A stretch of DNA of 64,000 nt from Haplodiscus bocki (Eukaryota): contig OZ296649.1 of assembly GCA_965655095.1 (NCBI GenBank), positions 11,780,001 through 11,844,000 on the forward strand, written 5' to 3'. Positions 34,470 through 58,076 of the stretch are shown here, one piece after another; the first letter of the stretch is position 1; the number at the start of each line of letters is the position of its first letter. The notes under the pieces were generated by a model. The model was not told the origin of the DNA. It searched no databases and saw only the letters and a program-made list of their open reading frames with translations. The position numbers and the translations under genes were made by a program.

Positions 34470-35823
34470 CGAAATATGCTCGAAAAAGCTTCAAGAAATT
34501 TAGAAGTAAAGTCTTCCTCGGAAATATCCGATGTGAGAGCATAAAATTGGTTTACACAAGGATAAAATGCATTTCGAGGATTACTTCATCATCCTTAAAT
34601 ACAAGATCTGAAATTAAAAACCTCACATAGTTAGTTGGATGACACACTTATGTAACAAAGGTGGGCGTCAGAATTTGAGATAAATAACTGGCATGCCCAA
34701 TTTACCGAAGAGCAAGGAAAGAATGGCGTCAATGCGGAAAAACTTGCAGTCATGCTGGCTTGAAATTGAATTTCCATGGCGCAGTTTGTTCGCCGTATAA
34801 AAATTCGAGGTTACAGATCTTGGTCATAGAATTTATTGAGCGTTTTCAAATTAGTCAGTTCAGTTCCATGATGGGAAGTGCCAACCCAAGTCACTTTTGG
34901 AGATGAATGAGTATCTGCGAAATTTCCACTATACTATTTCTTTGCAAATCATTCATGAAGCTGATTAACGGTGACAATAGGGAAACTGACACAGATGCGA
35001 CGCTGCGCTTCACAACACTTGCGCCAACGGAAAACTAGTGAACATATCGAAAAAACAACTGATTTCTGGAGGGGTCACGATAATACGAATATCAACTGTA
35101 CAAAAACTCAGTAAATTCTAGTACATTTATATGCAAGAGACGCTATAGTACGTCCCTTCAATCGCTTGATATTTTAAATGAAAATACTAATTCTCAAGCG
35201 ATAATATCACAGTCAGTAGAACATGCAGAGAAAAGATCTGCCATCACGCGCTATTCTTATACCAGATGAACTGCCGGAAAATGTAAGTTGAATGGTTTAC
35301 CTTCCAAGATGTTTTCCATTCGAGTGGTTGTTCAGATCACTTGTCCGGAATGTAACTCTCGCCATGTCGGCCAAACGGCCCGACATGGAAGTACTCGTCT
35401 GCAGAGCACAGTAAGCATTTCTAATTACTCCAGAGGAGCTTACCATCTACATTCAAAACTTATTTTCTCAAATTAAAATACTCTAGAGCGAGCTACCAGA
35501 TTTCCCTTGACCTTGTCTCTTGAAGCCCTGTATGTCCGGAAACTGAAACTTACCTTCAATCCAAGATGTATTTAATCTAAGGAGCTCTCCGAGATTGAGC
35601 TGAATGTGGTCGCAAGAACATTGGTTTTATCAAATGAAGATTTCATCTAACTACATAATGTTTTCTGTTGCTTTTGATTTCGGATATTGTTTCACTGATG
35701 ATGAAGTAATCCTCGAAATGAATTTCATCCGAATGTAATTAATTCTATGCTCTAACATCACATGATATTTCCAAGGAAGATTTTTCTTTTTTCACACCTT
35801 CACGTCTTCTCGAGCAATTTTCG
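34470..35823 (+). mobile_element. Truncated Penelope-like retroelement with inverted 5' pseudo-LTR
   Basis: RT-thumb-like TDTDATLRFTTLAP; GIY-YIG VVVQITCPECNSRHVGQTARHGSTRL and LEALYVRKLKLTFN. A ~125-bp inverted repeat (34470-34593 vs 35697-35823) contains CTGATGA...GAAA. Confidence 0.8.
35690..35735 (+). ncRNA. Degenerate minimal hammerhead ribozyme motif in the Penelope pLTR
   Basis: CTGATGA-tgaagtaatcctc-GAAA-TGAAT-TTCAT-C with near-palindromic stem III and an AUC triplet; stems I and II imperfect. Copies at ~34550-34595 (minus) and ~56662. Confidence 0.5.
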
Positions 35824-36255
35824 TTAGGTTGATGAGCTTAATGCCTAAAAAACTGTAAGCTTGAGAGAGGTCAATTGTCCGTAACAGAATGCCTACAGGT
35901 ATTTTTAATTTGGCAAAAGATTACCCAATCTTGCTCGCATAAATCAAAGACAATCTTTGGAGACATTTCTAAAGTTAGTTTCCAATTTGATGATGTAAGT
36001 GAAAAAAATTAACCTCAAAGTTTGCAGCACAGCTGAATTGTGTGTTAGGTAATTCTCAGTCTGTATTAGCTCGTCTGATATTTCTTTTACTCTGAAATCA
36101 TCAACAAGCTGCACAGAGTACGTTCTCAAGAACGATTATTATTTGACTTGTTTTGTCCATCAAAATAACATTCAGTTAAATCTCTTCAAAACGGAAGTAC
36201 ACACTGAAAAAGTTAAATTATCTCATCGACTATCAATCGATATGAAATTTTGGAT

Positions 36256-36515
36256 GGCTCTTTCCCGTTATCCCCCCCCCCCGCCCTACTGACAAAATTA
36301 TTATCCCCCCTTCCTAGCTGATGCTCAGATGAGCAGTATGGTTGAAGTTTCTGTTTAATATAAAGTTATTGCAAATACCTGTTTGTTTAACTAGCTTCAG
36401 CAAGCAGTCAGCTTCTTGGAGGGTACTTGAGAGTTGTGTATTGTGTGCACAGTCTACTGACTCGCAAAAGACGCTACAGCTTCGATTGGGGGGGGGGGAT
36501 AACGGGAAAAAACCC
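36256..36515. mobile_element. Mutator-like MITE (~260 bp)
   Basis: TIR GGCTCTTTCCCGTTATCCCC / GGGGATAACGGGAAAAAACCC; 9-bp TSD ATTTTGGAT / AATTTGGAT. Confidence 0.85.
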
Positions 36516-36673
36516 AATTTGGATATTTAATGCTCAAACTGCCAAGTATGCCTGAGTTTTTTAAAATTTCCTTTGAAAAATCATCGAAAAATCCCAGCTT
36601 TTTCTAAAATAACCCACATTCTGGACCCAAAATATGTTTTTGGCTGGCGTTGCTTTTCTGAAGAAGTGCCGAC

Positions 36674-36873
36674 NNNNNNNNNNNNNNNNNNNNNNNNNNN
36701 NNNNNNNNNNNNNNNNNNNNNNNNNNNNNNNNNNNNNNNNNNNNNNNNNNNNNNNNNNNNNNNNNNNNNNNNNNNNNNNNNNNNNNNNNNNNNNNNNNNN
36801 NNNNNNNNNNNNNNNNNNNNNNNNNNNNNNNNNNNNNNNNNNNNNNNNNNNNNNNNNNNNNNNNNNNNNNNNN
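36674..36873. other. Assembly gap (200 N)
   Basis: Run of N. Confidence 1.
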
Positions 36874-37719
36874 GTATAAGAATTCGAGGTTACAGATCTT
36901 GGTCATCGAATTTATTGAGCGTTTTCAAATTAGTCAGTTCAGTTCCATGATGGAAAGTGCCAAGCCAAGTCACTTTTGGAGATGAATCAGTACCTGCCAA
37001 ATTTTCACTATACTATTTCTTTGCAAACCATTGATGAAGCTAATTAACGGTGACAATAGGGAAACTGACACAGATGCGACGCTGCGCTTCACAACACTTG
37101 CGCCAACGGAAAACTGGAGAACATATTGAAAAAACAACTGATTTTTGGAGGGGTCACGATAATACGAATATGAGCTGTACAAAAACTCAGTAAATTCTAG
37201 TACATTTATATGCAAGAGACGCTATAGTACTTCAATCGCTTGATATTTTAATAAAAATACTAATTCTCGAGCGATAATATCACAGTCAGTAGAACATGCA
37301 GAGAAAAGATCTGCCATCACGCGCTATTCTTATACCAGATGAACTGCCGGAAAATGTAAGTTGAATGGTTTAACTTCCAAGATGTTTTCCATTCGAGTGG
37401 TTGTTCAGATCAGTTGTCCGGAACGTAACTCTCTCCATGTCGACCAAACGGCTCGACATGGAAGTACTCGTCCGCAGAGCAGAGCAAGCATTTCTAATCA
37501 CTCCAGAGCTTACCATCTACATTCAAAACTTATTTTCTCAAATCAAAATACTCTAGAGCGATCTACCAGATTTCCCTTGACGCCTGTATGTCCGGGAACT
37601 GAAACTTACTCTCAATCCAAGATGTATTTAATCTAAGGAGCTCTCTGATATTGACCTGAATGTGATCGCAAGAGCATTGGTTTTATTAAATGAGCATTTC
37701 ATCTAGCTAACTACATAAT
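36874..37719 (+). mobile_element. Second copy of the Penelope remnant (copy B, left part), interrupted by the LTR element
   Basis: GIY-YIG remnant at 37361-37636; the sequence resumes at 56625. Confidence 0.85.
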
Positions 37720-40342
37720 TGTCGCCCGTAGTAGGGGGTATTGCAAATCTATTAGTTACTTAGTTGTGCTGGCGGTTGACTAAGTCAGCACTGCTGTGTT
37801 GTAGCGACGGCAATTCTTTATATTTCTCAATAGTGTGCCTTGCTTATCCGTGCGAACAAACGGATTGCGTGAATTCAAGCAAGGACTTGTGAGCTATAGC
37901 GGAGGATAATACAACGGAAAGTTAAATTATCAGTATTTCAATATTTTGAATTGCTGAAAGGAATATGACTGCACGTACGTAAGGGGGAATTACTCAGCTC
38001 TGGAGGAGTGAACGTATAAATAACATCACACTAATTCAGACTAGTTTAATTCAGTCTGATTTGAAATGATAAAAATAAATATAAAAGTTGAATTGGTTTA
38101 ATTAAATCAAATTAAGATTTTATAAAACCACAATGAGACGATCGGACTCTCTCAACTTCGTCGAAATGAATTTTGAACTGAATTTTCAAAATTAGAAAAT
38201 CGGATTCTTTCAATTCAGTCCAAATGAAGTATAAGTTATAAAGTAATAAAAATAGGCTGATACAGGATAGCTGCTGTCGGAACTGGAACATCCGTAAATA
38301 GAGCAACAACATACACCAATTTACTTTTTGACTAGTGCGGTGATTACCTTTCCGTCTTATCGAGTCAGGTTATTTTAGCCAGTTTGTTTTACGTTTAGCT
38401 AAACCACGTTATGCTCTAGTTTTCCAGGCCAACGGGTTCACCTCCTGGTCCCTGTTTTAGTCCTCGCTGCACAGGCCAGTCTTTGAGGGAAGGGAGTGCA
38501 ATTTACATGCATTTTACATTACTCTTAGTATAAAAAATCACCTCCGTGCGGTATAAAACCAGCTTGTAGGGTTTAATCTTAAGACTGGTATTTAGTCACC
38601 TGCTGATTAACAGTCCGGACCCACGGGACACCAGCAATTAAATTTTACTCTTTTAACTGCGACCAGGACATTAGTCAAGGACTGTCAACTAGTCGTGATT
38701 ATTATATGTGTTTTACTTTTACCAATCAATTCTAAGTCTTAGTAAAAAAAAGGAAAAATTCAAAAAAAAGGAATTTTAGAAAAGTAGGAAAAGTAACAAA
38801 AAGGTCCGCGGTGCGGTGATTAAACCCTGCTACCGGGCAGCTAATCCTACGTCAAATCTTGAGGAGATGTCCTCTATTAGCAACCGTAACTATAACTAAC
38901 AGAGGCTGGCGTGAATCGCGTAGGTGCTGCTTGTAGGATGATTACTGGCGGTTGCGTGAGTGCTGGTTGATGGATGAATGCTGGTTGCTGTTGCTGCTGT
39001 TGATAGCTGCTGCTGGTTGCGGCTGGGATACTGCTTGTTGGATGATTGCTGCCGCTGGTATACTGCTTGCTGGCGAAAAAGTCTTTGAATATTTTCAGGA
39101 TATTGATGATTTGCGGCTAAGACAATTCTGCAGTCGAAACAGTCTTTGAACATTTTCGGGATATTGATGATTTGCGGTTAAGACAAATCTGCAGGCGAAA
39201 AAGTCTTTGAATTTTTCCGAGATATTGATGATGTGCGGCTAAGACAACTCTGCAGGCGAAAAAGTCTTTGAATATTTTCGCTGAAGTGATGAGGAAAATA
39301 AATCAATGAGGAATTTATTTTAAATTCTTGATGAGATTGGAGTGGAAAAGAGGTTCGCCTCGGGTAAGTAGGCTAGCAGGTGGTAGGAAGCGGTTCTGAG
39401 AAATAGAGTGTACGGGGTATTCATACCCTGTTATGGCGCAATCGAATAATTAACCAATAGGAGAGCGCTGCAGATAGCAATGTTAACGAAGATCATTTAG
39501 TCGGTAGGAATAGTTTGTATTTTGCAAAAAGGGACGGTTTCTGCATATTTAATCCGTGTATTGGAAATTAGAATGAAGTCTAATTGCCACGGACGCAGAC
39601 GAGGTGAGATATGATCTATGTAACGTCAACTCTCTTTCATAGGAACCTCGTGGGGTCGTGCAGTTTAAGATTTATTCATGCTTCAGAACCGGAGCTCGTC
39701 AGCGGAATTCGCACACGCTAATACCGAAGCTAGCGTTAGTGGACACTGTGTTTAGACTCCAGCGGCAAAAGTATAGAATGAAGATGCGAGAAGGAATAAT
39801 TTTCTAACCCAGAATATTTTTATCCGAAGGAAGAGGAAAGAGAATTTAGATTAATTTTATCCAAGCAAAAGGGAAGAGGAACGTAAGGTAAAAAGGAAAG
39901 GAAAGAAAGTAAAGGGGAAGAGGAGAGTAAAATAAGGTAAAAGGGAAAGGAGTAAGGCGTTCCGTTCCGTCCGGTGAGCGAGTTAGTGAATAATGATCGA
40001 GTTCCTTTCCCGGACCAGCTCCCAAATGAAGCTATGTCGAAATACCACGTGACCAGTCACGTGATCATGCAAGCAGGGTGCATGTCTAAATTTGAATATT
40101 GAGCCAATCGCGTTGAGCCACGTTCCAACGCATTTAGAAACTTTGCTTTTCCTTCCTTTGTGCAATTCCAATCCTTCAGCTTTCTTTTATACCGCGTGTT
40201 ATTTTATCCCGTCCAGCTCCCACGTTAGTCAATAACGTCTGCAGTTCTCTTTGTTAATCATTAATCATTTCCTGTTTAACAGCTTACTGCACGTATTTGA
40301 GAAATAAAACACATTTGTTTAAGCATTAGCTATAACCCGACA
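37720..40342 (-). repeat. 3' LTR (2623 bp)
   Basis: TGTCGCCC...CCCGACA; homologous to 53590-56624. Confidence 0.95.
39069..39280. repeat. 61-bp tandem repeat (~3.5 copies) within the 3' LTR
   Basis: GCAGGCGAAAAAGTCTTTGAATATTTTCGGGATATTGATGATTTGCGGCTAAGACAATTCT, with unit starts at 39130, 39191 and 39252. Confidence 0.9.
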
Positions 40343-40395
40343 ACTCACCGGGGTTAAAAGGATAGAAAAGTGTTTGGGGGGTTCTATAAAAAGCA

Positions 40396-41043
40396 TCATG
40401 GTTGGGATGTGGAAGGTGTGGCGCCTTCAGGGTCACATAGGTCGGTGAACTTTATCTCCAAATATAAAGTATTATTTAAAAGAAAGTTTTCAGTTTTGCA
40501 GAACAACTTGCTGTATGGGAAGAAGTTGAAGTTCGTCAGGGTAGGACATGGTTCTCGGGTAGGCGTTCGAAAGGATATCTTCTCGGAGGGTGCGAAGGTG
40601 ATAGTCCACTTATTCTGGGCGTCAAGTTGATCACAGACTGATAGATGAGTCGCTTTAGGGAACGGCCATGCCAATAAGCCATCGTAATCGCCGGGGAAAA
40701 AGGCGAACATAATTGAGGCGTGATTTCCAGTGGCAGAGTCCAAACGCTAGGGGTAAAACTGAACAAAGAAGTTATAGCCATGAGGGTGTGTGCGGTACAC
40801 AGGTCTATCATAATGAGTACTGGGGTTTGTGGCAGCATCGTCAAGTCGGACAGCAGATTTGGCAGTGTCGAAAACTAATGTCAAGGAAGTTAATTTCCAC
40901 AGGATATTGTCGGAGCCTCCAGACTCCAAGGCTCGGAATCTGTCATACAGAAAGGAAGGTAAATTGGGATCGGTAGATGGATATAATCGTTTCTCGACAC
41001 TTTCTTGCCTTAGTAACTTCTTCCAGTTGTTTGACTCGGGCTT
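40396..41043 (-). pseudogene. TRAF-type MATH domain with short coiled coil, captured by the LTR element
   Basis: EARVKQLEE..RFRALESGGSDNILWKL..PVYRTHPHGYNFFVQFYP*..TGNHASIMFAFFPGDYDGLLAWPF..LSVCDQ..FAP..SFRTP..FLLNNTLYLEI. One frameshift and one stop; preceded by the acceptor TTTTGTTAG. Confidence 0.9.
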
Positions 41044-41105
41044 CTAACAAAATGAAATTATTAAATGAAAAACAGCTAATAAGGATAACGCTCAAATTAT
41101 CCTAA

Positions 41106-43213
41106 TCAAACAGGGGAAAGAGCGATAGTATGATGATGAACAATCGGGTAAATGTGTTCTTCCTTCTTCTTATTTTCATCTACTGGATCTCTAGTCTCGT
41201 CTTCTATTCTTGTGGATATTGGTTCAGATTCCAACGCTTGTAGAAGAGGAGCTTGGGGATTGAATAGTGACGTTAGATTAGACGTCAAAAACAAACTGTA
41301 AGAAGCGCTCAGGGGTGCCTTGCCAAATCCAAGTGATGCGCCAGTAGGACGGTTAGCTTTCATGTGTCGTAAGATCATAACTATGATATCGACGATGAGC
41401 TTGATAAACAGGAAGCAAGAGAAATATATTCCACAAAATTCCAAAACATAGGCAACTAATCCAAACGTGTCCATAAACTGATTTTTGAAATAACTGGGGG
41501 AAATCATGTTGTCCACAGAGAATGCCATTCCTGGGGCATAATAAGAGTATTGTTCTGGTCCATGAATTGCTGTGTTGGGGACAAGGAGTTCTCAAGAGAA
41601 ATTTTATAAAGTTTTCCTTGAAGCAGCGCTGATAAGGATATTGTCCCAGAATCCAGATAACTGTGCTCGTGTGTAGATTCCAGCATCTCCTGCTTCACCA
41701 AAAGCTCTTCTGGATACAGGAGTCACATCCTTTGGTCCGAACACTGCAGGGCGTTTCCTGTGTTCGAGTGGGTGTAATAGTGAACCAAGAGTTCTCATAT
41801 TCCATGTCAAATTGAAAGAGATTCTTAATCCGGTCCGAACAATTTTGAACTTGGGCATGTGGGTAGCTTTGCCTGGTGATTGGGTCAACAAAGAAGCTGG
41901 CATTTTTGTAGAAGATAGGGATTTTGTCATAGCATTGGTTAATCACATGTGGCGGAGAACGCATCAGAGGGCAGTGATATAGCCAAGCGAGGCTGCCATC
42001 GGTACTGAGGAACATAGAGCGATTCCCAGTTACCATATAACCAGTTAGACGTGGGTTTTCCATTGAAAGCATCAAAATAGTCAATATTTCGGTTCTTTCT
42101 TGTTCGCATAGGTTCTTCAAAAGTTGTATCTCGGAGCCTTCAAGCATCTTTGAGCTTTCGAAGAATAGATAATCCAGTTTGGTTCCCTCATGGAGTTTAC
42201 AGTGTACGTTGAGGTATTGAGGCGTTTCTGGGTTAGGTTTATTTGTATGGGGTGACTCAGACTTATGTACGAATAGCCTGCCGTCAGATGAAACTGGAGG
42301 CTGGTAGTATTGTAGATGTTGTGTTCCTCCTGAGAATTCCATTCTTTTCCCAGAAGCTAGATCGAATCCACCAAAGTCGACAACCACGTATAATGAATCG
42401 TAGTTGGTCGGGTATACTTGTACTGGTTTGTTACAGAAGATCTTTGCTTCCGATTTTACTTCGAACAGATACTGGCTGCTGTTGTTTCGTCCACTGACGA
42501 TATAATAAATGTTTTTTACTTATTGATCATGTTAACGTCTTCTTTCCGATGAATAGCTAACACCCAACTGTCAGGGGCGTCCCATGGTAATTGCAATCCG
42601 TCTTCGCTCATAACTTGGCCATCCTTATTACGTATTTCAAGCACGACGTCTCGTACATGGCCTTCAAATGTCTTGCGATTTACCCATCCATATGAGTCGC
42701 ATTGACTTGTATATTTGTCGCTGAGGTCCGCTCCATCGTTATCAAAATCCTTTATTTTACAACCGTTGTTTTGACTCCTTTCTTGAACTCGAGTGTCTCA
42801 TCGTTTAAAGTGATTGAACCTCCTTTCGCTAAGGTTCTGCATTAAGATGCTGTAACGGTTAAGTCTATTGTTATTCCTCCTGTATGATGGGCGTCCATGC
42901 TTGAGTCGACTCCAAAGCCACAGTGACATTGTTCGCGCTGATATTTGACTCTACAGACTGTTGCGTTGATTTCTTGTCGAAAATGTTTTGTGTAGATAGT
43001 AATTTTTGCTCTGCTGACTTCTAGGTTCTCGGGAGCAATGTTGCATTTGGAAACTTGGTTTAAGGCGTAGGGGTTGTTCGCTGTCATCTCTCCACAGTCA
43101 TATTGTGTCACTTTGAGTTGGGAGGCTATGTCGTGCAAATCTGCGTTTTCGAGCTTGCCATTTGTGAAACTGGCTAAAACAATTAGGAACAAGACCTGGT
43201 CTATAACATCCAT
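41106..43213 (-). pseudogene. env: env: class III fusion glycoprotein (herpesvirus gB / chuvirus G-like)
   Basis: Signal peptide MDVIDQVLFLIVLASFTNG; YDC; CRVKYQREQCHCG; LDYLFF..LCEQER..ENPRLTGY..LYHCP..CYDKIPI..FVDPITR..QNC; C-terminal TM VAYVLEFCGIYFSCFLFIKLIVDIIVMIL. Frameshifted. Confidence 0.85.
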
Positions 43214-43339
43214 TGCATTTGCAAATGGGAAGGGTAGAGAGGAATGTTTCATCACAACTACCAAGAGAAAAGAGACAGCCGTAATATATTTTACCGGCTA
43301 CTTCGTAGGCACTAACAAGAAGCGGTAGCACTAAATTTA

Positions 43340-43585
43340 TAGAGTCGCTACACTACTCTAAAAAACGACGCCGAGATTTTTATAAAGGGTGCCGGACTAA
43401 AACCGGTATCACCAAAAAAGTGCGCCGGACTAAAACCGGTATCGTCAAAAAAGTGCCAAAAAAAAATTTATCTTACTTCCACCATAGGTAATAGATGATT
43501 GTAGTTCCCAGTTGGCTCGCACGTTCAACTATCCGGGTTTTGTTTGTTTGTAGTTCCCAGTTGGCCCTTACGTCCAACTATCAGA
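43340..43585 (-). promoter_or_regulatory. Putative internal promoter upstream of env
   Basis: Minus-strand TATAAAAA at 43384-43377, just downstream of two duplicated motifs (GCCGGACTAAAACCGGTATC x2; TTGTAGTTCCCAGTTGGC x2) and ~170 bp upstream of the env ATG. Confidence 0.4.
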
Positions 43586-43674
43586 AATTTGTTTATTGGT
43601 GAAGCAGATTGGTTGATTTGAATGTGTTGCTAAGACTTTGTAGGGGTTGTGAACAACTCATCTACCTTCTTCGT

Positions 43675-44085
43675 CTATTGTCTGAGTTCCAGGTCGTAAA
43701 GATTGCAAAGTTCGTGCAATAGGTTGATCAGTGACACCCCAGTGTAGGTCCCAAGGTTAGCTTTCATATACGCCAGGAGATCTACTAATCTTTGATTTTC
43801 CGTCGTGTCTAAAATCGGAGTGGCCAAGTTCCGACCGGCAATTGTGAGGGTCACAAAGAGGTTGGCGAATTCTGCTGCGCGGGCAGGTATTGGGATAACA
43901 ATTACAGTGGGTAGATTCTCAATCGGGTTGGTTCGGACTTGTAAAGGACTCCCGGCGGGTAGCGAAAAAATATTAGTGATTTTACACTCTCCCAAATTAA
44001 TTGAAGTCCAGTTGCAATTGAAATTAACTCTGTTGAGTGGTGTGTTTGTGTGTGACTGGGAGATTGATATTTCTAATTGATGCAT
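43675..44085 (-). CDS. Accessory ORF of unknown function (136 aa)
   Basis: Intact ATG-to-stop ORF between pol and env, abutting the upstream ORF (TGA-ATG). Confidence 0.6.
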   Translation of the reverse strand: MHQLEISISQSHTNTPLNRVNFNCNWTSINLGECKITNIFSLPAGSPLQVRTNPIENLPTVIVIPIPARAAEFANLFVTLTIAGRNLATPILDTTENQRLVDLLAYMKANLGTYTGVSLINLLHELCNLYDLELRQ

Positions 44086-44307
44086 TCAAATGATGAGTTC
44101 TTCCTTTCCACACTCCAGGTCTCCTGGAATATAAATGTCTGTTGCGAACAGTCGTCTGATGTGTTTGTAGTTGATTGATGTTTGTGGACACTTGTAGACT
44201 TCGAGATTCCCCTCTCCGTCTTCTGTATGGATATAGATCGCTGTTGATGAGGACTTCAGGTCAAACTTTTTGATACACTTCAAATACCCATCAATTTTGA
44301 CATACAT
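44086..44307 (-). CDS. Accessory ORF of unknown function (73 aa, possibly 5'-frameshifted)
   Basis: Protein-like composition; its stop directly precedes the next ATG. Confidence 0.5.
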   Translation of the reverse strand: MYVKIDGYLKCIKKFDLKSSSTAIYIHTEDGEGNLEVYKCPQTSINYKHIRRLFATDIYIPGDLECGKEELII

Positions 44308-44794
44308 CGTTCATAGCAAATCTGAGGATGTACTCTTCAGTTAATTCATTGCTAACGATGTATAATTTAGGTAAGTATTATATATAGTAACTATGTACTA
44401 AATAATGTAGGAATTTAGGAAACTAGGTTTTTCGTACTATCAACTAAAAAATCAAATAAAATGAATAAAATGTGTATAAAAGTTTTGGTGGCATCCTCTT
44501 TTTTTGTTTCGTTCTGCTGTCCTCGTCACTGCAGGGCCTTCCGGGGGTTAGAAGGGTAAGGTAGGCGTTTATAAGTTTAGGGCGAAATTCAAATAAACAA
44601 CTGGGAGAGAATCCTTCAGCACTGTTTTTGGTTCCGGGAGAATAGCCTAGAGCTATCTCTTGTCGGGAGCTCTTCGATTTCTTATCATTGACCTGTCGGC
44701 AAGGGGCAGCATCATTGTGCCGAATAGGATAGAGGCGTCATATTAAAAGCAGGATGGTCGTAGGTTCCAAGGGTTAAGGTAAAATTATTGCAGG

Positions 44795-45347
44795 ATGGAC
44801 AGTGACTCGGACTCCTACTACGAGGAAAATTGTGAAAATGAACAAGAGGTGGCGAGCCCCCTACACAATCGTGCAAGTAAATCTGGAGGACTCTACAGAA
44901 TCCCCACAGCCAGGTCCTCCGTCGCCCTTGCTGCCACCGCAACCAATTCCTGTGGGCGAATTGTCCCCCGTCTGGGAGCTGCCAGACGACGGGACGAATT
45001 TTATAAATTTTTTCACAAGAGCAGATGTGCTCGACCTAAAACAAAGGTCAGAGGCAACGCGACAAAGAAGAAATGAAGAAGGGTATATGGTGGAGGAGCC
45101 AATGCTGTCTCTGAAGTTTGTTTCGTTCCTCATAGAGTATCACGGTACTCAATGGGAACTTAAATTCATGCGGGCAGCGGCAGAGCCGTTGTTCGCCCAG
45201 TTATTGGGGTATGTAGCGGGTTATGCGCGGCTAACCAGCCACAACAAAAAGATCTTCCGCCAGGGATTCGAGACCTGGTCCGTGGAGGTCAAAAGGGAGC
45301 AGCTGAGGTTGTTGGCGGAGTCGGTCGGTTTCCTCGGATTAGAGTAA
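44795..45347 (+). CDS. Antisense accessory ORF (~180 aa)
   Basis: 181-aa open frame opposite to gag/pol/env, with a Pro-rich linker and helical C-terminus; probably starts with the acidic MDSDSDSYYEENCENEQEV via one frameshift. Confidence 0.55.
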
Positions 45348-48300
45348 GCTGCTCGGCTCTGTCGGTCGTCGGGGGCCTTTTAGCCTTCGGCGGTCTTTAT
45401 ATTGTCTTGTGCCATAGTTCACTGTGCAGCTTTCTTCTTTGGAATTGCACAACAAATAAAAATATTTTTGGCTTTACTGCAATATTTTTGTAAAAACTTG
45501 TAGAAAACATCAATCAGAAGTTGAAGTGGCGAGCAGAGGGTAAGTTGAATCGTCCACAGTGGAGGATCTTAGCAATATTGCTCAAGGTAATCGGAAATCA
45601 AGCAAAAGCAATAACTCCGAATAGGAAATAATGGTGCATGTAATATGAAAGTTATAAAATCGTGGCAATGTTATAAAAGGGATCAAAGTTCATAGCCCTG
45701 CCGGGTGATGGTTCTCAATACTGACTGAGAATTGGGTTGGTCTGGCTCTGAGCGGTTATATTTGGGCTCTTTAGAAAGCAATTTAACGCTATTTCCAGCC
45801 ATGCCGGCGGCACTGTTACGAAAAAATTGTTGAATTGGACTGAGAGGTTCCTTGGGCGACGATTGAGCAGCTTGTGCATACTGTGAAGAAGATGAATGGG
45901 TGGCTGATGTTCCAATAAGAATTGCGGGTGATAGCACAGGAGTTCGAGAAGAAGCACGTGGAGAAGTAATTCCTGAATTGTTACTGTGCGTACTAGGTCG
46001 TTTCGGCTTGTTTGTGGACCAAATAGCTCGTAACGGTTCTATTGGGAATGAGAAGGAGTCATGCTCTTGTTATACTTGGGTTTTTCAAATCTCGGGCGCG
46101 TTGTTCCCTAAAGCGTTTGTAGAAATTGTTCTGTTGATCAGGAGGTACATATTCTTCGATCATCGCGGGTAGGGATCCTTCTTTGGGGTAATACTCGACA
46201 AGGTGATTTCGATGAACAGTTTTGATAATCGTGGGGTCTTTATCATCCTGAATTTGATAGGTGGTATTCGTGATAAGCTTGGTGACAGTAAAGGGTCCAA
46301 GTCGTCGCTGTTGAAAATTTTGGCTTCGAGTAAGGTCTTGTTTGTGATTTTCATAGAGAAATTTCTGTCCTACTTCGAGGTGATGTCCCAGCTTGAAACG
46401 ATTGCGATAGGCGTGTGATCGTGCACTTTGTTCACGGCAACGTTCAAAGGTTGATGAATAGATTTGTTTGAAGGTTAGTTCTCTGTCTAAGAGAGCTTGT
46501 GATAATTGCGGCTGAAGTAGCTTGTCTAACAATTCGTTTTTTAAGCTGTTCTCGCTATGAGAAAGAGGGGGGCGGTCCTTACAGAAGTTAGAGCAGCAAA
46601 GCTTGTGCTTATTCCGATAAAGTTCCAATCTGAGGGACATAGGAATTTGGGGTTTAGTCAAGAAGACAATTTCATATGGGGTTCTCCCAGTTGTGTAGTT
46701 GAAACTTGTGTTGTGGGCGAATGCAAACTTGGGTGCTAGCGAAGACCAGTTGTTTCCGGTATCGTTCAGAAAGTTTCGCCAGAATCGAGCAATATGTTGG
46801 TTCTGGGTTTGAATTTTACCATTTGTCCAGGGTGAATGAGCTGTACGAGGTCTTAGGGTAATTCCAAGTTCTTTGGTCCAGTTGACGAACTCTGTATTAA
46901 TAAAGGCAGTGCATCGATCATGGATGATTGATTGCGAGATTCCACAGGAAAGGATCCACTTTTCCACAGTTGTAATAGTTGCTAGTGCTGTTGTATCACG
47001 TACTGGGTAGACCATCAAAAATCGAGAGAAGGCATCAATGATTAAGAGACAATGTACATTGTTGGCACCAATTGGGTGAAGAGGTCCCTTATGATCAATG
47101 TGCACAGTGCGAAAGGGAACTGTTTCGTTTTGCCATTCCTCTAGTGGAACTTCATTCCGATGCTTTGGTTTAGGTTTATTATTCTGGCAAGTAAGGCAAT
47201 CGGCTGTCAAAGCACATATCCAACCAAACATTCCAGGCCAAAAGTAAAATCTCTTGGCATTGGCATAGGTTTGGTTGCTCCCTTGTGTCCACCCATTTCG
47301 TTGTAGTGTCCCACTCGGAAGCATGCAAGGAAGATGCATAAAGGGAGGCAAATACGGAGATTCTCTTCTAGCTTGTCTGACGGTTCATTATAGCAAAGGA
47401 GCTGTCCTTCTTCTTCAATAAGACGTCTATCTAATTCTTGACAGTATCGTAGGAAACCTTTAGACTGTTGGATCTCTGGTGATATAGTATCGGGAGGAGT
47501 GTTTCTACGAATCCATGAACGTATAGAACCAAGGACTGGACCTTCATTTGTCCTGTGAGGATAGTCGATACGTCGAAGTCGACTGTCTTCGCAATCTCAT
47601 CAAGTTTCCGGATTAACGCCTTGGTATCTAGATGAAAAGCATCACAGGTTGTTAGGAATTTCTTGACTAGCGAAGCATCAGTTTTCCCAAGCACCAGGTC
47701 GTGAGCTTCTTTGGCTTGACAGAGTCGGGCTCCGTCAGCTTGAATACTGATATCACAGGCGATATTGTCATCTTTTGAGTCGGTACTAATGTGGTGTGAG
47801 TCATCGCCGGGGCTCGTCGAGTCTGCTGTGTCATCTTGGGACGGCCTAAAGGAGTTGATTGAACTATAGTCGGTATTGGATGCGTTGGGAGAGACGCTTG
47901 ATTGGGTCTCTGGTCCACATATTCGTCTAAATTGGTTGATAAGTCTTCCCATTCGGAAACAGCCTGAAGCCTGTTGGATTGAAGTGATTGGAAATTTGTC
48001 GAGCATACAACTGACGGTAAAGTCCTCGCCATCGTTTTGTAATCTCAGTATTTTTTCTTCGTTGCCGCGTTCGTACTTTATTGGGTAGAAATCGTTGCAG
48101 GTATTATTAGGGTTGTCTTCATGTTGAATTTGGTAAGACACCGGAGTGCCGTGTTAGTCGAAAAACTCAATATCACGCGGAATACGTTTGTGTTGCATTT
48201 GGTGCTTTTGATATTCTTCGATCATGATGTTTCTGCTGACAGTATCTGGAAAGGCTAAGTTCGAGCCTGGCGTCCAAATGATCTTCAAGTTCTGGGATTT

Positions 48301-49879
48301 CGTAATGATCACCTGATATCGGAAAAAGCGATGCGATAGTTGTCATTTTCGGCCCCATAGATGAAGAATTGGTTCATGATTACAATAGAGATAAATGGGA
48401 AACGCTGATCCAATAAAGTGGTGTTCGTATGTCTGGAGAGCTGATACGATTCCACATAGTTCTCGATGGAGAGTGGACAATTTTTGTTCTGCTTTGTCAA
48501 ATACACGCGAATTGAAAGAGATAATTCTCTTTCCCTGAGGGAATTGTTGGATAAGAATACAACCTGTACCAACATCTGAAGAGTCCACGTGAATATGAAA
48601 CGGGTAATCGGTAGAAGGAACTGCTAGAACTGTACCTTTGTGAATTCGTTCCTTAATGGTGTTGAACAAATTTTCGTGTTCTTCAGTCCAGTGGAAAAGT
48701 GTAGAATCTTTAGGTCATAAAAGGGCTGACTATCAACGTGTAAGTTCTTGATAAAGTAGCTGTAGAAACTAAGACATCCCAAGACAATCATAACGTCTCG
48801 CCTACTCGGTGGTGACTTGAGGTTCCTCAGGGCGTCCACACGCTTTGCTATTGGTTGAATCCCATCTGGTGAGATAACGTGTCCCAAGAACTTTACTTTC
48901 TTGAGAAGAAAAACGTCTTGTCGTGGGCAGCTTTTAACCCAGCCTTCCGCAGAAGGGTGTGATATTCATTGATGATGGTGAACATCTCGCCTCTAGTTTG
49001 CGATTGCATAATGGTGTCATCAATGTAGGTAATTGCTTGCTTTTTCCTGATCAGTGGGTCAAAATGAACCGTCATCAAGCGATTGAAGATGTTTGGTAGG
49101 CCACACAGACTGTAAAAACCTCGGGTGAAAGTATATTGCCGTCCACCGAAGATGAAGCTTGTCAATTTCTGTGTTTCGAAGCTAAGAGGTACTTGATGGT
49201 ATGCACAGGACAGGCCGCTGACTGAGAAGAACTTTCCATTTACTCTCATCATAATCATCTGAACGGGTCCTAATGGCCAGGAATAGTTTGTGAGGTCGGT
49301 CACTGAGTTCACATAGCGAGCATCAATCACTAGTTTGACGTAGTCATTCTTTGGCATCAGGAATATTGGGTTAACAAAGAGAGCTCCCATCTCGTCGTCA
49401 TCACCCATTTCTCGAATGATTTCGGCGTCCTCAAATTGTGTCAGCAGTTTCTCGAGTTTGTCTCTCAGATGTAACGGTACTTTGTTAGCTTGCTTGCGTT
49501 TCAGTTCCACGTTCGGTTTTAATATAACGTGAAATTTTCGTTGGGTTTTTCCAACATCGAATTTGTGGAGGGAATACACATCCTTCGAGTCGATTAGCAT
49601 ATCAATAAGGAGGGTCAATTCATTGTCAGTGATGTCTGAGTACTGAAAATCGAATCGTTTAACGTAATCAATTAGCTCTTTAGGCTGATACTGAAGATAG
49701 TGGTCAAAAAGAGCGAGCTTCGTTTTCTTCTTTCGGGCGTAGAACGGGAAATTGTTATCGCAAACTGGTTGACAGGACTTGGCGTCGCTGGTAAAATCAG
49801 TTACAAATTCCCTTTCGTTCAAATGAAATTCCTCGCTATATCGGTCTATCTCATCTTCGGCATAACTCAGCGGAAATAG

Positions 49880-50050
49880 CGTGAATTGCGTGTTCGTCTA
49901 ATGAGTAGACCACGTTTTGTATATCTGAATAGGCAAAGATATTTCGTAGGAGCTTTACTACATCTTGCCAGTTCATCTGGTCAAGACCACATCCAATCTT
50001 TGGTATGGCAATCGTTGAAACTCCGTGCATTGTAGAGCGTGCTTGCAATC
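49880..50050 (-). pseudogene. C-terminal half of a TARG1/OARD1 (DarG-like) macrodomain within pol
   Basis: MHGVSTIAIPKIGCGLDQMNWQDVVKLLRNIFAYSDIQNVVYSL matches the PxIGCGLD.L.W..V...F....I.VY.L signature. Confidence 0.85.
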
Positions 50051-50877
50051 GTTGTACTGTTCGTTTGTCGAAAAGATTGCGTTCGTTAGCTCATAAGGGT
50101 CCCGTACTTGGTACTCTGGTTCATCGTTGTCGGAGACGTCCAATGATGAAAAGCCAATTCGGCCCTTAGGCAAAGTAATTTGGTGATTCTTGTTAATTTC
50201 CATAAGTATAGTTAGTTTTGATTCTGATGGAGTGCATAGCACAGTGACAAATGATAGTCCCGTAGTGACAGCATTGCGATTTGGGTGAAAAGTTGATCCA
50301 GGAGGGAAATGAGCGTGAGGATCTTCAGGAGAATACTTCCAGCATCTTGCGCTCTTGGCTTTAATGTGCATTGCATGCGGAGTTCGTATTGTTAGGATTT
50401 GCGAAATGAAAGGGTGCGATTTGTTCTGATGAAGGCTTCCATAACACACAGTATTTGGTGGGTCTTTAAGTGCAATTCCGGGTGAATCAAAAGGAATACC
50501 AGATTTTTGCTTTTGACAGAAGTCCATGCCCAGGAGGTTCTGAGTCTTCATTTTGGTAATCCAGGCAGTCAAGGGGAAAGAAAATTGTCCATCCGGATCG
50601 TAACAGAGTGTTAATGTAGCAAAGCCAATCATAGGCACAACTTGACCAGAATAAGTCCTTGTTTGTGTAGTGTTTCTTTTCACCTTGATTGGATGTTGGG
50701 TTTGGCATATTCCCCGAATGGTTCGATAGTTTATGACTGAGCTAGAAGCTCCAGTATCTAACACGAATCCAAATTCTAAGCCACTATCTTTTTGAGTGTC
50801 TCCGGTGGCAAAGAAGAAAAAGTTAAAGCTGAGTCTTGAATTCTTGGACGGATTAGTAGTAGTTGAACTTGGAGACC

Positions 50878-52264
50878 TTAATAGTTTAAAGGGCATAGTC
50901 CCGATAGTTCATTCATTTCATCGTCTGTTGTATTGAACCGAAAGACGTTCGGCTGACCACCATTATTGGAGGTTGGGAACTTCTTGTTTTAGGGATTAAC
51001 ACTGAAGGATTAGGCGAGTTGAGTCGGGGTTGTCTGCGGGAATCCGTAAAAGATGAACCTTGTCCTGCCGTTGAAGGCGATCGCGAATAGTTATTGTTAC
51101 TTCCCCAATTCCTAGATTGATCTTGGTCGGACTGATATGGTTGGTGATCTCGCTCTGCAGTCGCTGAACCGATTATTGTTGTTACTCGGGTAGTCTCCTC
51201 GCTCGAAAGGTCTGTTTTGTCTGAATCTGCTAGAAATCTGATTACTTGGCCGAAGTTTCCTCCAGTAAAAGATCGGGGGGTTGACATCATAGCCCCATTA
51301 TCATCGTTCTGTCTGGTCCAATTCCCAGATCTATGGGAAGGTCCACGTCACTTGTTGTAGTCATGGGTGAACGTAATCTTTTTCTCGGCTGTGGCTTCAT
51401 TCTGTAACTTCTTGACTTCTTCATATCGTATCTTCTTTCTGCAAAAACTAGGAGTCTGACCATTGGTTCTACAGTATCCACAAAATCTTGTAGCATTCTG
51501 TCTTCTCTTCTGGTTAGGGTCAATGGTTTTCTGGTTCCCTTCTAAAGCGTTTATTCTGTGTTCCTTCAGATCAGTTCGTAGGTTTTTTAATTGTCCCAAG
51601 GAGGCCATTTGAGCCTTGTTCTGATCTTCGTCGTTCAGGAAGCTAGTAGACTTGATAAGATACGTCTTTGTAGATTAAATAGGTTAGAAATCGTTCCAAG
51701 TTGCATTTGGATGTTCCATCAGATATTCCTGAGCCTTTCGTTGTAGATACCTTGGTCTGAGTCCCCTTAGTGTGTAATCGATGTATCTTTATCGTCTCTG
51801 GCGAACTTGTGCGGTGCGTTCGGCGGCCTGTTCAGCTGCTACAACTCCATCCATATCGTCGGGCCAGCCTTTGTCCACTGTTTTCATTAACCGGTGAAGG
51901 AAGTTTCGAATCTCTTCTCCATCTGCTCGTAAACAATGTTCAACTTCCATTCTGTGTCTGAAAATGTTTCTTCCATCTGAAAATCTGGTTATGAACAGAG
52001 TTCGGACCTCATTCGAAGTCATTGCATCTTGAATAGTTCCCCATACCATTCAGCTGCTGGTGCTCTTAGCAATGAAGAAAATAAGACTTTCTTTCTGAAT
52101 AAATAAATAACATGTTCTGCATCGGCTTCGTCTGGTTCGGTTCCGAGAGCAAAATTATTCTAGCACTCTATTAAGCGGATGAATGCTTCTGCAACTTGGT
52201 CTGGGTCTGTGCCAGAGAATTTGTCCAGTGCCAAGTCTGGGTAAGCTAGATGAGTATTGGCCAT
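50878..52264 (-). pseudogene. gag: gag
   Basis: MANTHLAYPDLALDKFSGTDPD..LLRAPAAEW..FITRFSD..GEEIRNFLHRL; Zn knuckle CGYCRTNGQTPSFC (His lost). Stops and frameshifts. Confidence 0.88.
50884..50890 (-). promoter_or_regulatory. -1 ribosomal frameshift heptamer U-UUA-AAC at the gag/pol junction
   Basis: The gag frame reads ..TGC CCT TTA AAC TAT TAA; the -1 frame TTT AAA CTA is the open protease frame. Confidence 0.65.
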
Positions 52265-52282
52265 TTTAGCAATTATATCTTC

Positions 52283-53100
52283 TCAAAACAAGAAGTCTAG
52301 TTGTTCTCCAAGAATATGAAGTTGGTGGGAGTTCAAGTGGGGTTCAGGGAAATCCACGTCATCGTTTAGTGCCTCTGATAGAGATTCAAGTAAAGGGTGA
52401 TGTTTCTTAATGTTTATTCGTTTCGAATTATTTGGGTTTTCTTCTGGATGGGCAGTCATTCTGATCCAAAAAGTCCATTTCAAGCACGTAATGATGGCTG
52501 CTAGGGTTTCGTGTCTTGGGAGGTGATATTCCAGAGGCAAATCAGTGGAATATGTTTGCAGTCTTCTTCGGGTAGCTCGTCCAAATTCGTTATCGAACTT
52601 TCAAATTTTTGTGGCATTAGTTCTCAACACGAATTTATTATGAAAGAACAATTGAAGTTGTCTATGTATATTGGTTCACCACTGGGTCAGTATGGAGTGA
52701 ATTGATAACTGTCAAGTCCAATTCGGGAAATCCAAGTTCTGGAAAATCGTGACATCTTTGAATAGCAGCGATTGAAGCAAAATGTTCGTGGAATCTCAGT
52801 GTAATAAATTTAATAAATAGGGGTTCCCCAGTGGGATGGACTTGTAAACGAAGCCGAAACTGTCGGTGAAGGGTGAAATCAATCCTTGCTATTGTCACTT
52901 CTAGTTGTTCGGTTGGGGTTTTTATTGTCCACGGGCAGAACGGGAATACTGGTTTGAATTCGTTGTATTCGAAGAAGTACCAATGTTGGTTTGGGTCCTT
53001 TCCAAATTCCAGGGGCATTAGCTAATTATTCGTCAGATTGCTTGTTCAGAATTTGCCCAATTTTAATAACTGCCAAGATATAACTGGGTCCCAAGTGTAG
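52283..53100 (-). pseudogene. Pre-gag accessory ORF of unknown function (fragmented, ~250 aa)
   Basis: ORF pieces at 52662-53018 and 52283-52540, linked by a protein-like frame and ending just before the gag ATG. Confidence 0.5.
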
Positions 53101-53359
53101 AGGTAGCAAAAGAATCAGCACGAGATACAGGAAAAGCACGAGGTCTCCTCTCATTTCCGAATGGTAGAGTTGCTGTGATTCAGATTGTCGTCAATCTCGG
53201 ATAGTGCATCCAAAAGGGCAGGATTCAGCAAAAAAAACCAATACTATTAAAAGCAGCAGATATAAATAAATTATTAAATCGTGATTCATCTCCTTAAAAA
53301 ATAAATTAGTTTATCAAAAACAGTGGTAAAGCACATTTGAAGCACCCAAAAACGATGGA

Positions 53360-53563
53360 TTAATTCTTAGGAAAGATTCTCAGCAGGTTCGAGTGAAAAA
53401 GGCTCTGATAGAAGTCTAAAGCCCAATCGATCATTATTCCAAAATAAGCGCTTGTAATAAAGGAAACAGAAGCACCCAGTATAAGAATTAAAGTGAAAAT
53501 TAAAAATGACCATGTTGGCAAAAGGGAGAAAAAACTATCTGATACTTCACAAGTATAGCTCAT
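53360..53563 (-). CDS. Small hydrophobic (transmembrane) leader ORF, 67 aa
   Basis: Starts just after the PBS; contains LLPTWSFLIFTLILILGASVSFITSAYFGIMI. Confidence 0.45.
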   Translation of the reverse strand: MSYTCEVSDSFFSLLPTWSFLIFTLILILGASVSFITSAYFGIMIDWALDFYQSLFHSNLLRIFPKN

Positions 53564-53570
53564 TGATGTG

Positions 53571-53586
53571 CTTCACTGTCGCGCCA
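53571..53586 (-). promoter_or_regulatory. Primer-binding site TGGCGCGACAGTGAAG (tRNA not assigned)
   Basis: TGG begins 3 nt inside the 5' LTR end. Confidence 0.75.
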
Positions 53587-53589
53587 GTT

Positions 53590-56500: not shown

Positions 56501-56624
56501 CCCACGTTAGTCAATAACGTCTGCAGTTCTCTTTGTTAATCATTAATCATTTCCTGTTTAACAGCTTACTGCACGTATTTGAGAAATAAAACACATTTGT
56601 TTAAGCGTTAGCTATAACGCGACA
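53590..56624 (-). repeat. 5' LTR (3035 bp)
   Basis: TGTCGCAC...CGCGACA; has an extra ~0.3 kb (53879-54187) and ~4.5 copies of the 61-bp repeat (55290-55561). Confidence 0.95.
55679..55740 (-). promoter_or_regulatory. Putative LTR core promoter: CCAAT, TATGAATA, Inr-like TCAG
   Basis: TATGAATA at 55707-55700 lies 28 nt upstream of the A of TCAG (55679); CCAAT at 55736-55740. Coincides with the LTR divergence step. Confidence 0.55.
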
Positions 56625-57621
56625 ATGTTTTCTGTTGCTTTTGATTTCGGATATTGTTTCACTGATGATGACGTAATCCTCTAAATGAATTTTATCCAAA
56701 TGTAATTAATTAATTAATTCTATGCTCCAACATCACATGATATTTCCAAGGAAGATTTTTCTTTTTCACACCTTCACGTCGTTTCGAGCAATTTTCGTTA
56801 GGTTGATGAGTTTAATGCCTAAAAAGCTGTAAGCTTGAGAAAGGTCAATTGTCCGTAACAGAATGCCTACAGGTATTTTTAATTTGGCAGAAAGATTACC
56901 CAATCTTGCTCACATAAATCCAAAAGAATCTTTGGAGACATTTCTATAGTTAGTTTCCAATTTGATGATGTAAGTGAAATAAATTAACCTCAAAGTTTGC
57001 AGCACAGCTGAATTGTGTGTTAGGTAATTCTCTGTTTGTATTAGCTCATCTGATATTTCTTTTACTCTGAAATCATCAACAAGCTGCACAGAGTACATTC
57101 TCAAGAACGATTATTATTTGACTTGCTGCGTCCATCAAAATAACATCTCTTCAAAACGGAAGTACACAGAAAAAGCCAAATTATCTTATCGACTATCAAT
57201 CGATATTAAATTTTGGATGGGTCTTTTCCGTTATCCGCCCCTCGCCTACTGACAAAATTATTATCCCCCCCCCCCCAGCTGATGCTCAGCTGAGCACTAT
57301 GGTTCAAGTTTCTGTTTAATACAAAGTTCTTGCAAATACCTGTTTGATTACTTTAACTAGCTTCAGCAAGCAGTCAGCTTCTTGGAGGGCACTTGAGATA
57401 TGTGTATTGTGTGCACAGTCTACTGACTCGCAAAAGACGCTACAGCTTCGACTGGGAGGGGGGGGGATAACAGAAAAGACCCATTTTGGATATTTAATGC
57501 TCAAACTGCCAAGTATGCCTGAATTTTCCAAATTTCCTTTGAAAAATCATCGAAAAATCCCAAGTTTTTCTCAAAAATAACCCACATTCTGGACCCAAAA
57601 TATGTTTTTGGTTGGCGCTGC
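56625..57621 (+). repeat. Copy B (right part) of the duplicated segment
   Basis: Homologous to ~35658-36652. Confidence 0.92.
57219..57482. mobile_element. Mutator-like MITE
   Basis: TIR GGGTCTTTTCCGTTATCC / GGATAACAGAAAAGACCC; perfect 9-bp TSD ATTTTGGAT. Confidence 0.9.
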
Positions 57622-58076
57622 GATACCCCTTGTTCTATTTACTGGATTTTTTGGGAAAGCAAACAGGGAAAATATTCGCGATACACCCTTTCAATTTTCC
57701 ATTTTTCCCGAAAACACAATTACCAAAAATTTAAAACCCGTTTGCAAATACCGGAAAATCAGAAAAAGGAATTACCGGGAAAAGTCAAACACCAAAAAAT
57801 TGATACTATCCACTTGTCCCTCGATTATCCGCCACATTAGTCAGCATGCTTCTTCGCTGCGGTAAATAACCGCCAAACTCGACAAAATGATTATAATTTT
57901 GACCTTTCATTGTTTAAAATAAGACAACCGAACTTGGTCCCACTCAAAAATGCGCGAATGGTGGCGAAAACTGGAGGGATCACTATACTTTTCTTTGGCA
58001 TACAAAATTTTCCCGAAAAATTGTCAAAACAACAAGGGTCTGGCCGTTCTTGGTTTGTTGAATATTATTTTTTCTC

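Follow-up and report, generated by a model that had tools for sequence, protein, structure and literature searches.

The presence of a TRAF-type domain between the envelope gene and the 3' LTR of a retroelement from Haplodiscus bocki raises the question of what this gene is, how it is expressed and what it does for the element. The locus was analysed in a stretch of 64,000 nucleotides, hereafter called the window. The original prediction saw there a captured coiled coil plus a full TRAF-C/MATH domain, devoid of any start codon, whose coding frame opens just after a splice acceptor. The reading favoured here, to which we give a probability of roughly two in three, is that the element family carries two accessory genes after env, a spliced ORF-X and a RING-less TRAF, which are likely expressed from one message and the second of which likely enters host TRAF trimers.

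The features of the window copy are listed in Table 1. All the characteristics of a Ty3/gypsy element with env are found: paired LTRs with TG...CA ends, a gag followed by protease, RT, RNase H and integrase, and a fusion glycoprotein encoded after pol (Pfam). The glycoprotein matches PF24664 (E 2.1e-16 in the window copy and 1.1e-33 in a young copy), and the MATH domain, of TRAF type, matches PF21355 on the minus strand at 40399-40956 (E 5.5e-16; 59.5 bits for a cut-off of 27.4). Three parts of the original prediction are thus recovered, namely the TRAF-C/MATH domain, its location between env and the 3' LTR, and the lack of RING and zinc fingers, none of which was found in the window TRAF. As its LTRs are only 90.5-92% alike and its gag, pol and env are each in several pieces, the window copy is, on these comparisons, an old insertion. 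The flanks have only AT in common, which does not define a target-site duplication. The TRAF remnant is itself damaged. The coiled-coil residues form a short stretch ahead of MATH, from 41047 to about 40950, and a frameshift near 40950 separates the coiled coil in frame -3 (to 40946) from MATH in frame -1 (from 40956), which contains an in-frame stop at 40749-40747. Therefore, both announced domains are present but they do not make up one coding frame. Globally, the window carries an env-bearing Ty3/gypsy element that has decayed and has lost an internal segment by deletion.

Table 1. Features of the LTR element in the window and their positions
Feature	Positions	Strand	Remarks
LTR element overall	37720-56624	-	5' LTR, small ORFs, gag, pol, small ORFs, env, TRAF remnant, 3' LTR
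3' LTR	37720-40342	-	TG...CA ends; begins 54 nt past the TRAF stop
TRAF gene, 3' half (second coiled coil and MATH/TRAF-C)	40396-41047	-	decayed; own stop 40398-40396
Deletion junction mimicking an acceptor	41045-41047	-	shared TTA
T-rich intron-end remnant, env stop to deleted acceptor	41048-41105	-	
env, Monjiviricetes-type fusion glycoprotein (PF24664)	41106-43330	-	at least 4 pieces; inside the putative intron of the accessory message
ATG GTG GAA / GTAAGA, putative ORF-X Met-Val-Glu start and splice donor	43471-43485	-	ATG 43485, GT 43476
Small accessory ORFs mA and mC between pol and env	43675-44310	-	mB undetected in window copy; no Pfam match
pol: protease, Macro, RT, RNase H, integrase (Ty3/gypsy order)	45731-50896	-	Pfam; broken
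gag	50881-52267	-	broken in window copy; Retrotrans_gag match in young copy
Small paralogous ORFs upstream of gag	52286-53045	-	no Pfam match
5' LTR	53590-56624	-	TG...CA ends; 90.5-92% identity to 3' LTR

Between protease and RT, the pol gene encodes a Macro domain (window 49851-50090; in a young copy it matches PF01661 at E 1e-4), which might oppose ADP-ribosylation defences. Upstream of gag lie three to four small ORFs, three of them paralogues, and three others lie between pol and env, all devoid of Pfam match; several abut stop-to-ATG, including mA/mB and mB/mC, and in family B (see below) a relative of the pre-gag paralogues sits between pol and env. Both LTRs of the window copy contain 61-nt tandem units and a CAG/CAA-rich tract, and the whole element is embedded in a ~2.07-kb tandem repeat (34795-37709 and 56615-57622) whose units are 91-97% alike.

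As announced, TTTCATTTTGTTAG is present in the window copy, with an AG at 41045-41044 and a frame open from 41043. However, on comparison with sister copies, this AG is the junction of a deletion of about 1.35 kb rather than an acceptor. Extra DNA at 41045 is found in 27 of the 29 sister copies, which match the window on both sides of it (1.29-1.36 kb in 26 copies and 0.77 kb in one); the two others have no upstream match. Both breakpoints share TTA, and the first ~29 codons past the AG are the coiled coil read out of frame. The scar is composite, its T-rich left side being the end of a real intron and its AG deriving from Leu-Glu codons within the TRAF gene. In a DNA search of the own genome, the other 39 of the best 40 of 1009 candidates are 85-88% alike and start at query base 64 or beyond; none of these 39 covers bases 1-63 contiguously, and therefore the deletion is not common to the best matches. 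The deletion removed the true acceptor, the entire ORF-X, the TRAF ATG, the PAM2-like motif and the first coiled coil; accordingly, no ORF-X match is found in the window.

In undeleted copies, the env stop is followed by a pyrimidine tract, an AG, an ORF-X of about 227 codons without any Met, and a TRAF ORF of 433-436 codons that has its own ATG. The acceptor AG is retained at 20 of the 26 locatable sites (among 29 copies), with 8-12 pyrimidines in the 12 positions before it. An ATG occupies the TRAF start column in 20 of 28 DNA-selected copies (the window copy and the frame-reference copy being left out), every time as an ATGA overlapping the ORF-X stop. This upstream in-frame ATG in intact copies is what had been set beforehand as refuting a TRAF without start codon. 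A protein search gave 4540 candidates; 65 of the 97 scored are stop-free over the TRAF frame of about 433 aa. Of the 20 copies retrieved together with 20 kb of surrounding sequence, 16 have LTR pairs 95-100% alike, which indicates recent activity of the family. The arrangement of a 1.35-kb gap hiding an ORF-X and an ATG-started 433-aa TRAF is almost certainly correct.

A search with a more distant TRAF revealed three further families (B, C and D, besides A). All four display env, ORF-X, TRAF and LTR in that order, in elements of about 19-21 kb with the order gag-pol-env, and all keep an ORF-X C-terminal domain of about 50 residues. The RT cores of families B-D are 77-93% identical to that of family A (the RT tree comprises copies from the H. 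bocki genome only) and their TRAFs just 27-38%. The public protein set contains 298 relatives, and no relatives were confirmed in metagenome contigs. Pol-less derivatives also occur (L185-L186 and L183-L184 on G000 C11; protein P0224), whose LTRs, 99.8% and 99.5% alike, indicate that they are young. In these, an internal deletion joins the env N-terminus in frame to MATH, giving frames of 277 aa and 169 aa; among 150 genome TRAF matches, frames of these two lengths or of 280 aa appear 18 times, two of them having been seen in context. The suggestion that the domain is joined to Env is therefore true of such fusions, but these are deleted derivatives.

The question of how an ORF-X devoid of Met is started finds an answer upstream of env. 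An ATG GTN GAR followed by GT lies about 140-270 nt before env in 20 of 20 family A copies and in 5 of 5 copies of families C/D; it is found in none of three family B copies, where ORF-X has an internal ATG. Nine genomic loci of family C carry the exact junction between this donor and the acceptor following env, with env gone (reversed control 0), and seven of them are open for 198-211 codons from Met-Val-Glu. In family A, one locus displays this exact join too (control 0), its frame running open through 229 codons to the ATGA; at a second locus the acceptor is the same but the GT donor is another one, with one mismatch. Reverse transcription of spliced RNA leaves genomic copies from which an intron is missing precisely between its GT and AG ends; since ten copies have lost env exactly at donor and acceptor, the splice is established indirectly, and since the nine family C loci are only 78-97% alike mutually, more than one event is probable. 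It is thus very probable that a splice from ATG-GTN-GAR/GT to the post-env acceptor removes env and would produce a Met-Val-Glu-ORF-X protein, predicted to be about 210-230 aa long. The idea of an accessory gene reached by splicing is therefore retained, since a splice does remove env and open the 3' region, but its acceptor serves the neighbouring ORF-X.

Other junctions were also considered. The tandem second AG gave no genomic junction as an acceptor. Four sequence runs placed on a young copy proved to be contigs spanning all 30 bins, and the env intron is absent from the 15 joints listed out of 484, which says nothing either way about the splice. Loci with changed sequence before the acceptor numbered 26, and the 20 examined comprised 17 unrelated sequences, two local env-end deletions and one splice-like join. 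At one locus (L210, G000 C6:13211002), a GT donor inside mC is joined to the ORF-X acceptor; this join would create a stop right at the junction, and the TRAF ATG would then be nearly the first start downstream. In 16 of 20 family A copies (E12130-12205), a strong AG/GTGAGT donor directly follows the stop of mC; it is altered in the window copy (~43665-43655). An ACG start of ORF-X via this donor was entertained; 15 of its 16 spliced-product matches were examined and all belong to an unrelated multicopy repeat that is near-identical on several chromosomes (L213-L227), and the proposal was dropped once the Met-Val-Glu donor had been found.

As for ORF-X itself, its model (pLDDT 76.5) includes a predicted C-terminal five-strand SH3-like barrel, whose structural match is weak (best Z 3.6, rmsd 2.9, 49 aligned positions, among SH3-like folds such as Tudor, chromo barrel and integrase C-terminal domain). 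No match was obtained in Foldseek at E 0.001 and none was significant in Pfam, PDB sequences or viral folds; derivation from the integrase C-terminal domain of the element itself was rejected for want of a profile match (probability 0.2%). As the protein combines an acidic N-terminus and a basic patch ahead of this small barrel, our guess is that it might be a nuclear regulator. Its dN/dS between subfamilies, estimated from 16 stop-free copies of a protein-chosen set, is 0.21.

The TRAF gene follows ORF-X so closely that stop and start lie within 5 nt in all four families, through four different sequences: ATGA (A), TAATG (C), TGATG (D) and TAA-AC-ATG (B). Moreover, in each of the 17 family A copies compared in register, ORF-X contains only 0-3 ATGs in any frame versus 6.6-8.4 in shuffles, of which no more than 3 in 300 reach so low a count, the copies being related and not independent; since the first 680 nt of TRAF are likewise ATG-poor (3-7), this depletion is partly generic. 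Coupled termination-reinitiation at AUGA or UAAUG is documented in caliciviruses, influenza B and SART1, where, as at ORF-X/TRAF, stop and start overlap or adjoin between two long ORFs (PMC5972666, accessible part). TURBS-type restart also depends on an upstream UGGGA motif and RNA structure. TGGGA cores lie at -98 in five of five junctions, where invariant Trp-Asp codons force them, and also at -113, where Trp-Glu codons do so; six other junctions have none. Furthermore, dS reaches 0.83 in the last 70 ORF-X codons, so that synonymous sites ahead of the stop-start are unconserved, which argues against a constrained RNA restart element. Ribosomes would reach the TRAF ATG by restart at the stop-start and/or by scanning through the ATG-poor ORF-X, and translation of TRAF from the ORF-X message by one or both of these routes is probable.

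The element TRAF contains a PF21355 MATH domain and has TRAF5 and TRAF4 as best PDB matches (E 1e-10). Unlike the canonical TRAF2/3/5/6 E3 ligases, which carry an N-terminal RING and TRAF zinc fingers, it lacks both: Pfam detected neither in eight element proteins or in the acoel host relatives, including Convolutriloba macropyga XP_075250303.1 (482 aa) and a 474-aa relative, and found both in the control P0142. At the top of the genome's PF21355 matches stand two host genes (L101 and L102), around which no element sequence lies for 70 kb. The alignment of the element TRAF with one of them extends over 327 aa and takes in the first coiled coil (27%, E 7e-43); with the other it is confined to the MATH region. 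The ~49 kb upstream of each gene revealed no RING exon, and their first exons were likewise not found. Since acoel host relatives are RING-less too, the missing RING is not a truncation due to capture and, on the proteins compared, its loss predates the capture. The acoel RING-less TRAFs (XP_075250303.1, L101 and L102) share with the element TRAFs a first coiled coil motif, a low-complexity linker, a second coiled coil and MATH, but they have introns and a short Cys/His N-terminal remnant, whereas the element TRAFs are intronless, 24-28% identical to them and, in families A, C and D, have a PAM2-like motif at the N-terminus. Indeed, L101 and L102 both have an intron near the C-terminal end of MATH and the element TRAF is continuous across this site, so that capture via spliced RNA is the simplest reading.

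As called for in the original prediction, phylogeny was used to compare element and host TRAFs. The tree comprises 38 domains, one short row having been dropped; it unites element TRAFs with RING-less host TRAFs (support 100/99), apart from canonical TRAFs, and places families A, C and D in a clade of their own (100/100). A single capture of all element TRAFs is not rejected (AU p 0.196); family B may derive from a separate capture. Five RING-less TRAFs of the protein set (P0135, P0213, P0232, P0235 and P0237) include the sequence of the last host exon and group with or near element families; these are possibly element-borne TRAFs of other lineages or species. P0135 is intronless and has no close match in the H. 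bocki genome. With good confidence, if less than for the splice, the TRAF gene can be proposed to come from the acoel RING-less clade via spliced RNA and to be selected during element replication.

In families A, C and D, whose TRAFs are 33-38% identical, the N-terminus displays a PAM2-like motif, absent from family B. PAM2 (PF07145) is the sole Pfam match of three of four N-terminal peptides, at E 0.004-0.01 and 15.9-17.2 bits, below the curated cut-off of 20. Among 120 family A proteins, 60 retain the N-terminus, and 50 of these display the strict PAM2 pattern; it is found in none of 14 host or other TRAFs and nowhere in 51,881 background residues. In the protein-chosen set, dN/dS between subfamilies is 0.07 over residues 1-30; in the DNA-selected set, residues 1-15 have an omega-like ratio of 0.33, from 10 shared variants only, and are no tighter than the rest. 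The only MLLE match found in the genome (L191, G000 C4:53459528) is partial, in one frame, and adjoins a HECT-like segment, an arrangement that we take to be UBR5-like. The search gave no whole host MLLE domain in the genome, and a PABP MLLE was not found in a first look. PAM2 binds the MLLE domain, and PABPC1 and EDD are the two MLLE proteins (PMC9753129, accessible part).

In cells expressing the element, its TRAF would enter host TRAF trimers and, through a changed receptor-binding strand and the added PAM2-like tip, would divert or dampen TRAF-dependent stress or death signalling. Such co-assembly and dampening, close to the signalling decoy first suggested, are a prediction from modelling that we consider slightly short of even odds. 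The mixed trimer modelled, with two domains of host type and one from the element, reached a score of 0.66 versus 0.00 for the best of three controls, a score that is blind to hetero- versus homo-trimer preference and for which the host chain was P0129, not an H. bocki gene; contacts agree at 92% or more and partner pLDDT is at least 80. The mark is reached by 51 of 78 solved pairs and 2 of 108 mismatched pairs, and the score of 0.66 may reflect mere likeness to solved TRAF trimers. The MATH strand to which receptor peptides bind in mammalian TRAFs varies among the four element families and is constant in the host clade. Toll-like receptors, proposed as one target of the decoy, are an unlikely one, as none was found in the six xenacoelomorphs surveyed (PMC8609888, accessible part). 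Furthermore, a viral TRAF need not be a decoy, since that of the megalocytivirus ISKNV, ORF111L, reportedly binds TRADD and induces apoptosis (PMC3352826, accessible part).

Several alternatives must be weighed against the two-gene reading. A TRAF domain that is itself start-less and spliced in through the AG at 41045 has become hardly credible. The AG, the T-rich tract and the frame open from 41043 all exist in the window copy, and joining the phase-0 donor at 43476 to 41043 would lead in frame into MATH, up to the stop at 40749, which is a one-in-three coincidence; however, 27 of 29 sister copies lack the site, which is the scar of a deletion, TRAF has its ATG in 20 of 28 copies, and the window copy is an old one (LTR identity 90.5%) with breaks in gag, pol, env and TRAF alike. 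As a trait of the family, this acceptor is refuted by the comparison of copies. It is also very improbable that TRAF is a neutral passenger, picked up once and copied along. Many copies are broken, the pol-less derivatives retain only part of TRAF, and singleton, i.e. private, variants are neutral (omega-like ratio 1.15). However, the variants found in at least three of the 28 DNA-selected copies are mostly synonymous (144, versus 112 non-synonymous and 2 stops), giving an omega-like ratio of 0.31 (0.19 in the first coiled coil, 0.23 in the second coiled coil and MATH, 0.52 in the linker), and the frame is kept across four families despite the divergence of RT and TRAF (RTs differ by 8-23%, TRAFs by 62-73%). 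The contrast between shared and private variants therefore indicates that the protein is under selection as long as the element replicates and that it decays once a copy has inserted, and the shared-variant ratio largely refutes the neutral reading. Pairwise dN/dS between subfamilies is 0.20 (29 copies), this value, like the 0.21 of ORF-X, coming from a set picked by protein likeness, which lowers dN. The idea of a captured host gene in a nef/bel-like position, for which purifying selection across copies had been proposed as a check, is thus borne out.

The two other alternatives concern expression and function. TRAF could have its own transcript, from an internal promoter or via a second acceptor inside ORF-X, the stop-start overlap being mere tight packing. 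The lack of a conserved synonymous signal upstream of the junction and the codon-dictated TGGGA motifs would suit this view, but it is unlikely given that the spacing stays at 5 nt or less in four families through four sequences, that mA/mB and mB/mC abut stop-to-ATG too, and that ATGs are scarce in ORF-X; translation from the ORF-X message is preferred. As for function, TRAF could be an adaptor, whose MATH would bind host targets and whose PAM2-like tip would recruit PABP or UBR5/EDD, resulting in control of RNA fate or in a ligase brought in to replace the missing RING. The conservation of the N-terminal motif in three families with such divergent TRAFs, the dN/dS of 0.07 over residues 1-30 and the MLLE encoded beside a HECT-like segment all speak for it, as does the presence of MLLE in PABPC1 and EDD (PMC9753129, accessible part). 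However, the PF07145 score is under the Pfam cut-off, the motif is missing in family B and residues 1-15 are not more constrained in the DNA-selected set, which makes the adaptor rather doubtful and less likely than entry into host trimers with dampened signalling.

The two-gene 3' cassette can be compared with several known systems. In foamy viruses (tas/bet) and lentiviruses (nef/tat/rev), the stretch from env to the 3' LTR likewise carries accessory genes expressed by splicing, env lying within the intron. These are Retroviridae and the Haplodiscus element is of Ty3/gypsy type; the likeness seen is one of layout. The closest precedent is the planarian Burro/GYPSM1, a giant Ty3/gypsy element that combines env homology (mononegavirus fusion proteins) with a MATH_TRAF_C domain in a worm host; this domain lies inside ORF1 in Schmidtea and in an upstream accessory ORF in Dugesia tigrina (PMC6431247, accessible part). 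Burro is about 30 kb long and encodes one polyprotein of about 5,000 aa, with env between gag and pol and with BIR, BCL2, ankyrin and SUMO-like domains (PMC6431247). By comparison with this description of Burro only, the Haplodiscus element has separate gag, pol and env ORFs and is devoid of BIR, BCL2 and ankyrin; moreover, its TRAF, from an acoel host clade, forms a last gene of its own downstream of env and has a spliced ORF-X as partner. The ancient errantiviruses are, similarly, multicopy and recently active gag-pol-env Ty3/gypsy elements of invertebrates (PMC13524379, accessible part); the accessible text contains neither TRAF, acoel nor Xenacoel- and describes no 3' accessory cassette, and the seven supplements do not include the terms TRAF, Convolutriloba, Symsagittifera, Hofstenia or Xenacoelomorpha. 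ISKNV ORF111L is likewise virus-borne and related to host TRAFs, but it belongs to a large DNA virus and keeps a RING-type finger (PMC3352826, accessible part). In the freely accessible literature searched, neither a spliced two-gene 3' cassette nor an acoel TRAF-bearing element was found. TRAF capture by an env-bearing gypsy element is known from Burro, and the spliced two-gene 3' cassette is apparently new.

Complex vertebrate retroviruses are typified by accessory genes that manage the host, and such genes have barely been described for invertebrate LTR elements. Here, a selected, host-derived TRAF is kept by a whole clade of elements within one animal genome, with at least 97 near-full-length copies in family A alone, and the splice that expresses the 3' region is recorded in the genome itself. 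Among 150 matches, most of the best TRAF matches in the genome are element-borne copies, and TRAF gene counts in such genomes can therefore be inflated. About eight small accessory genes, an env inside an intron and a spliced two-gene 3' message are traits resembling those of complex retroviruses. That a gypsy lineage independently evolved a genome of this kind, together with a PAM2-tipped TRAF coupling host trimers to PABP or UBR5, is more doubtful still than the adaptor; if true, this would be a transposon-encoded signalling adaptor, with a borrowed ligase or a handle on RNA control in place of the RING, and this in an animal group devoid of Toll-like receptors. Together with Burro, these elements suggest repeated capture of TRAF in worms without Toll-like receptors, and such repeated capture would point to a TRAF-dependent pathway that restrains retroelements.
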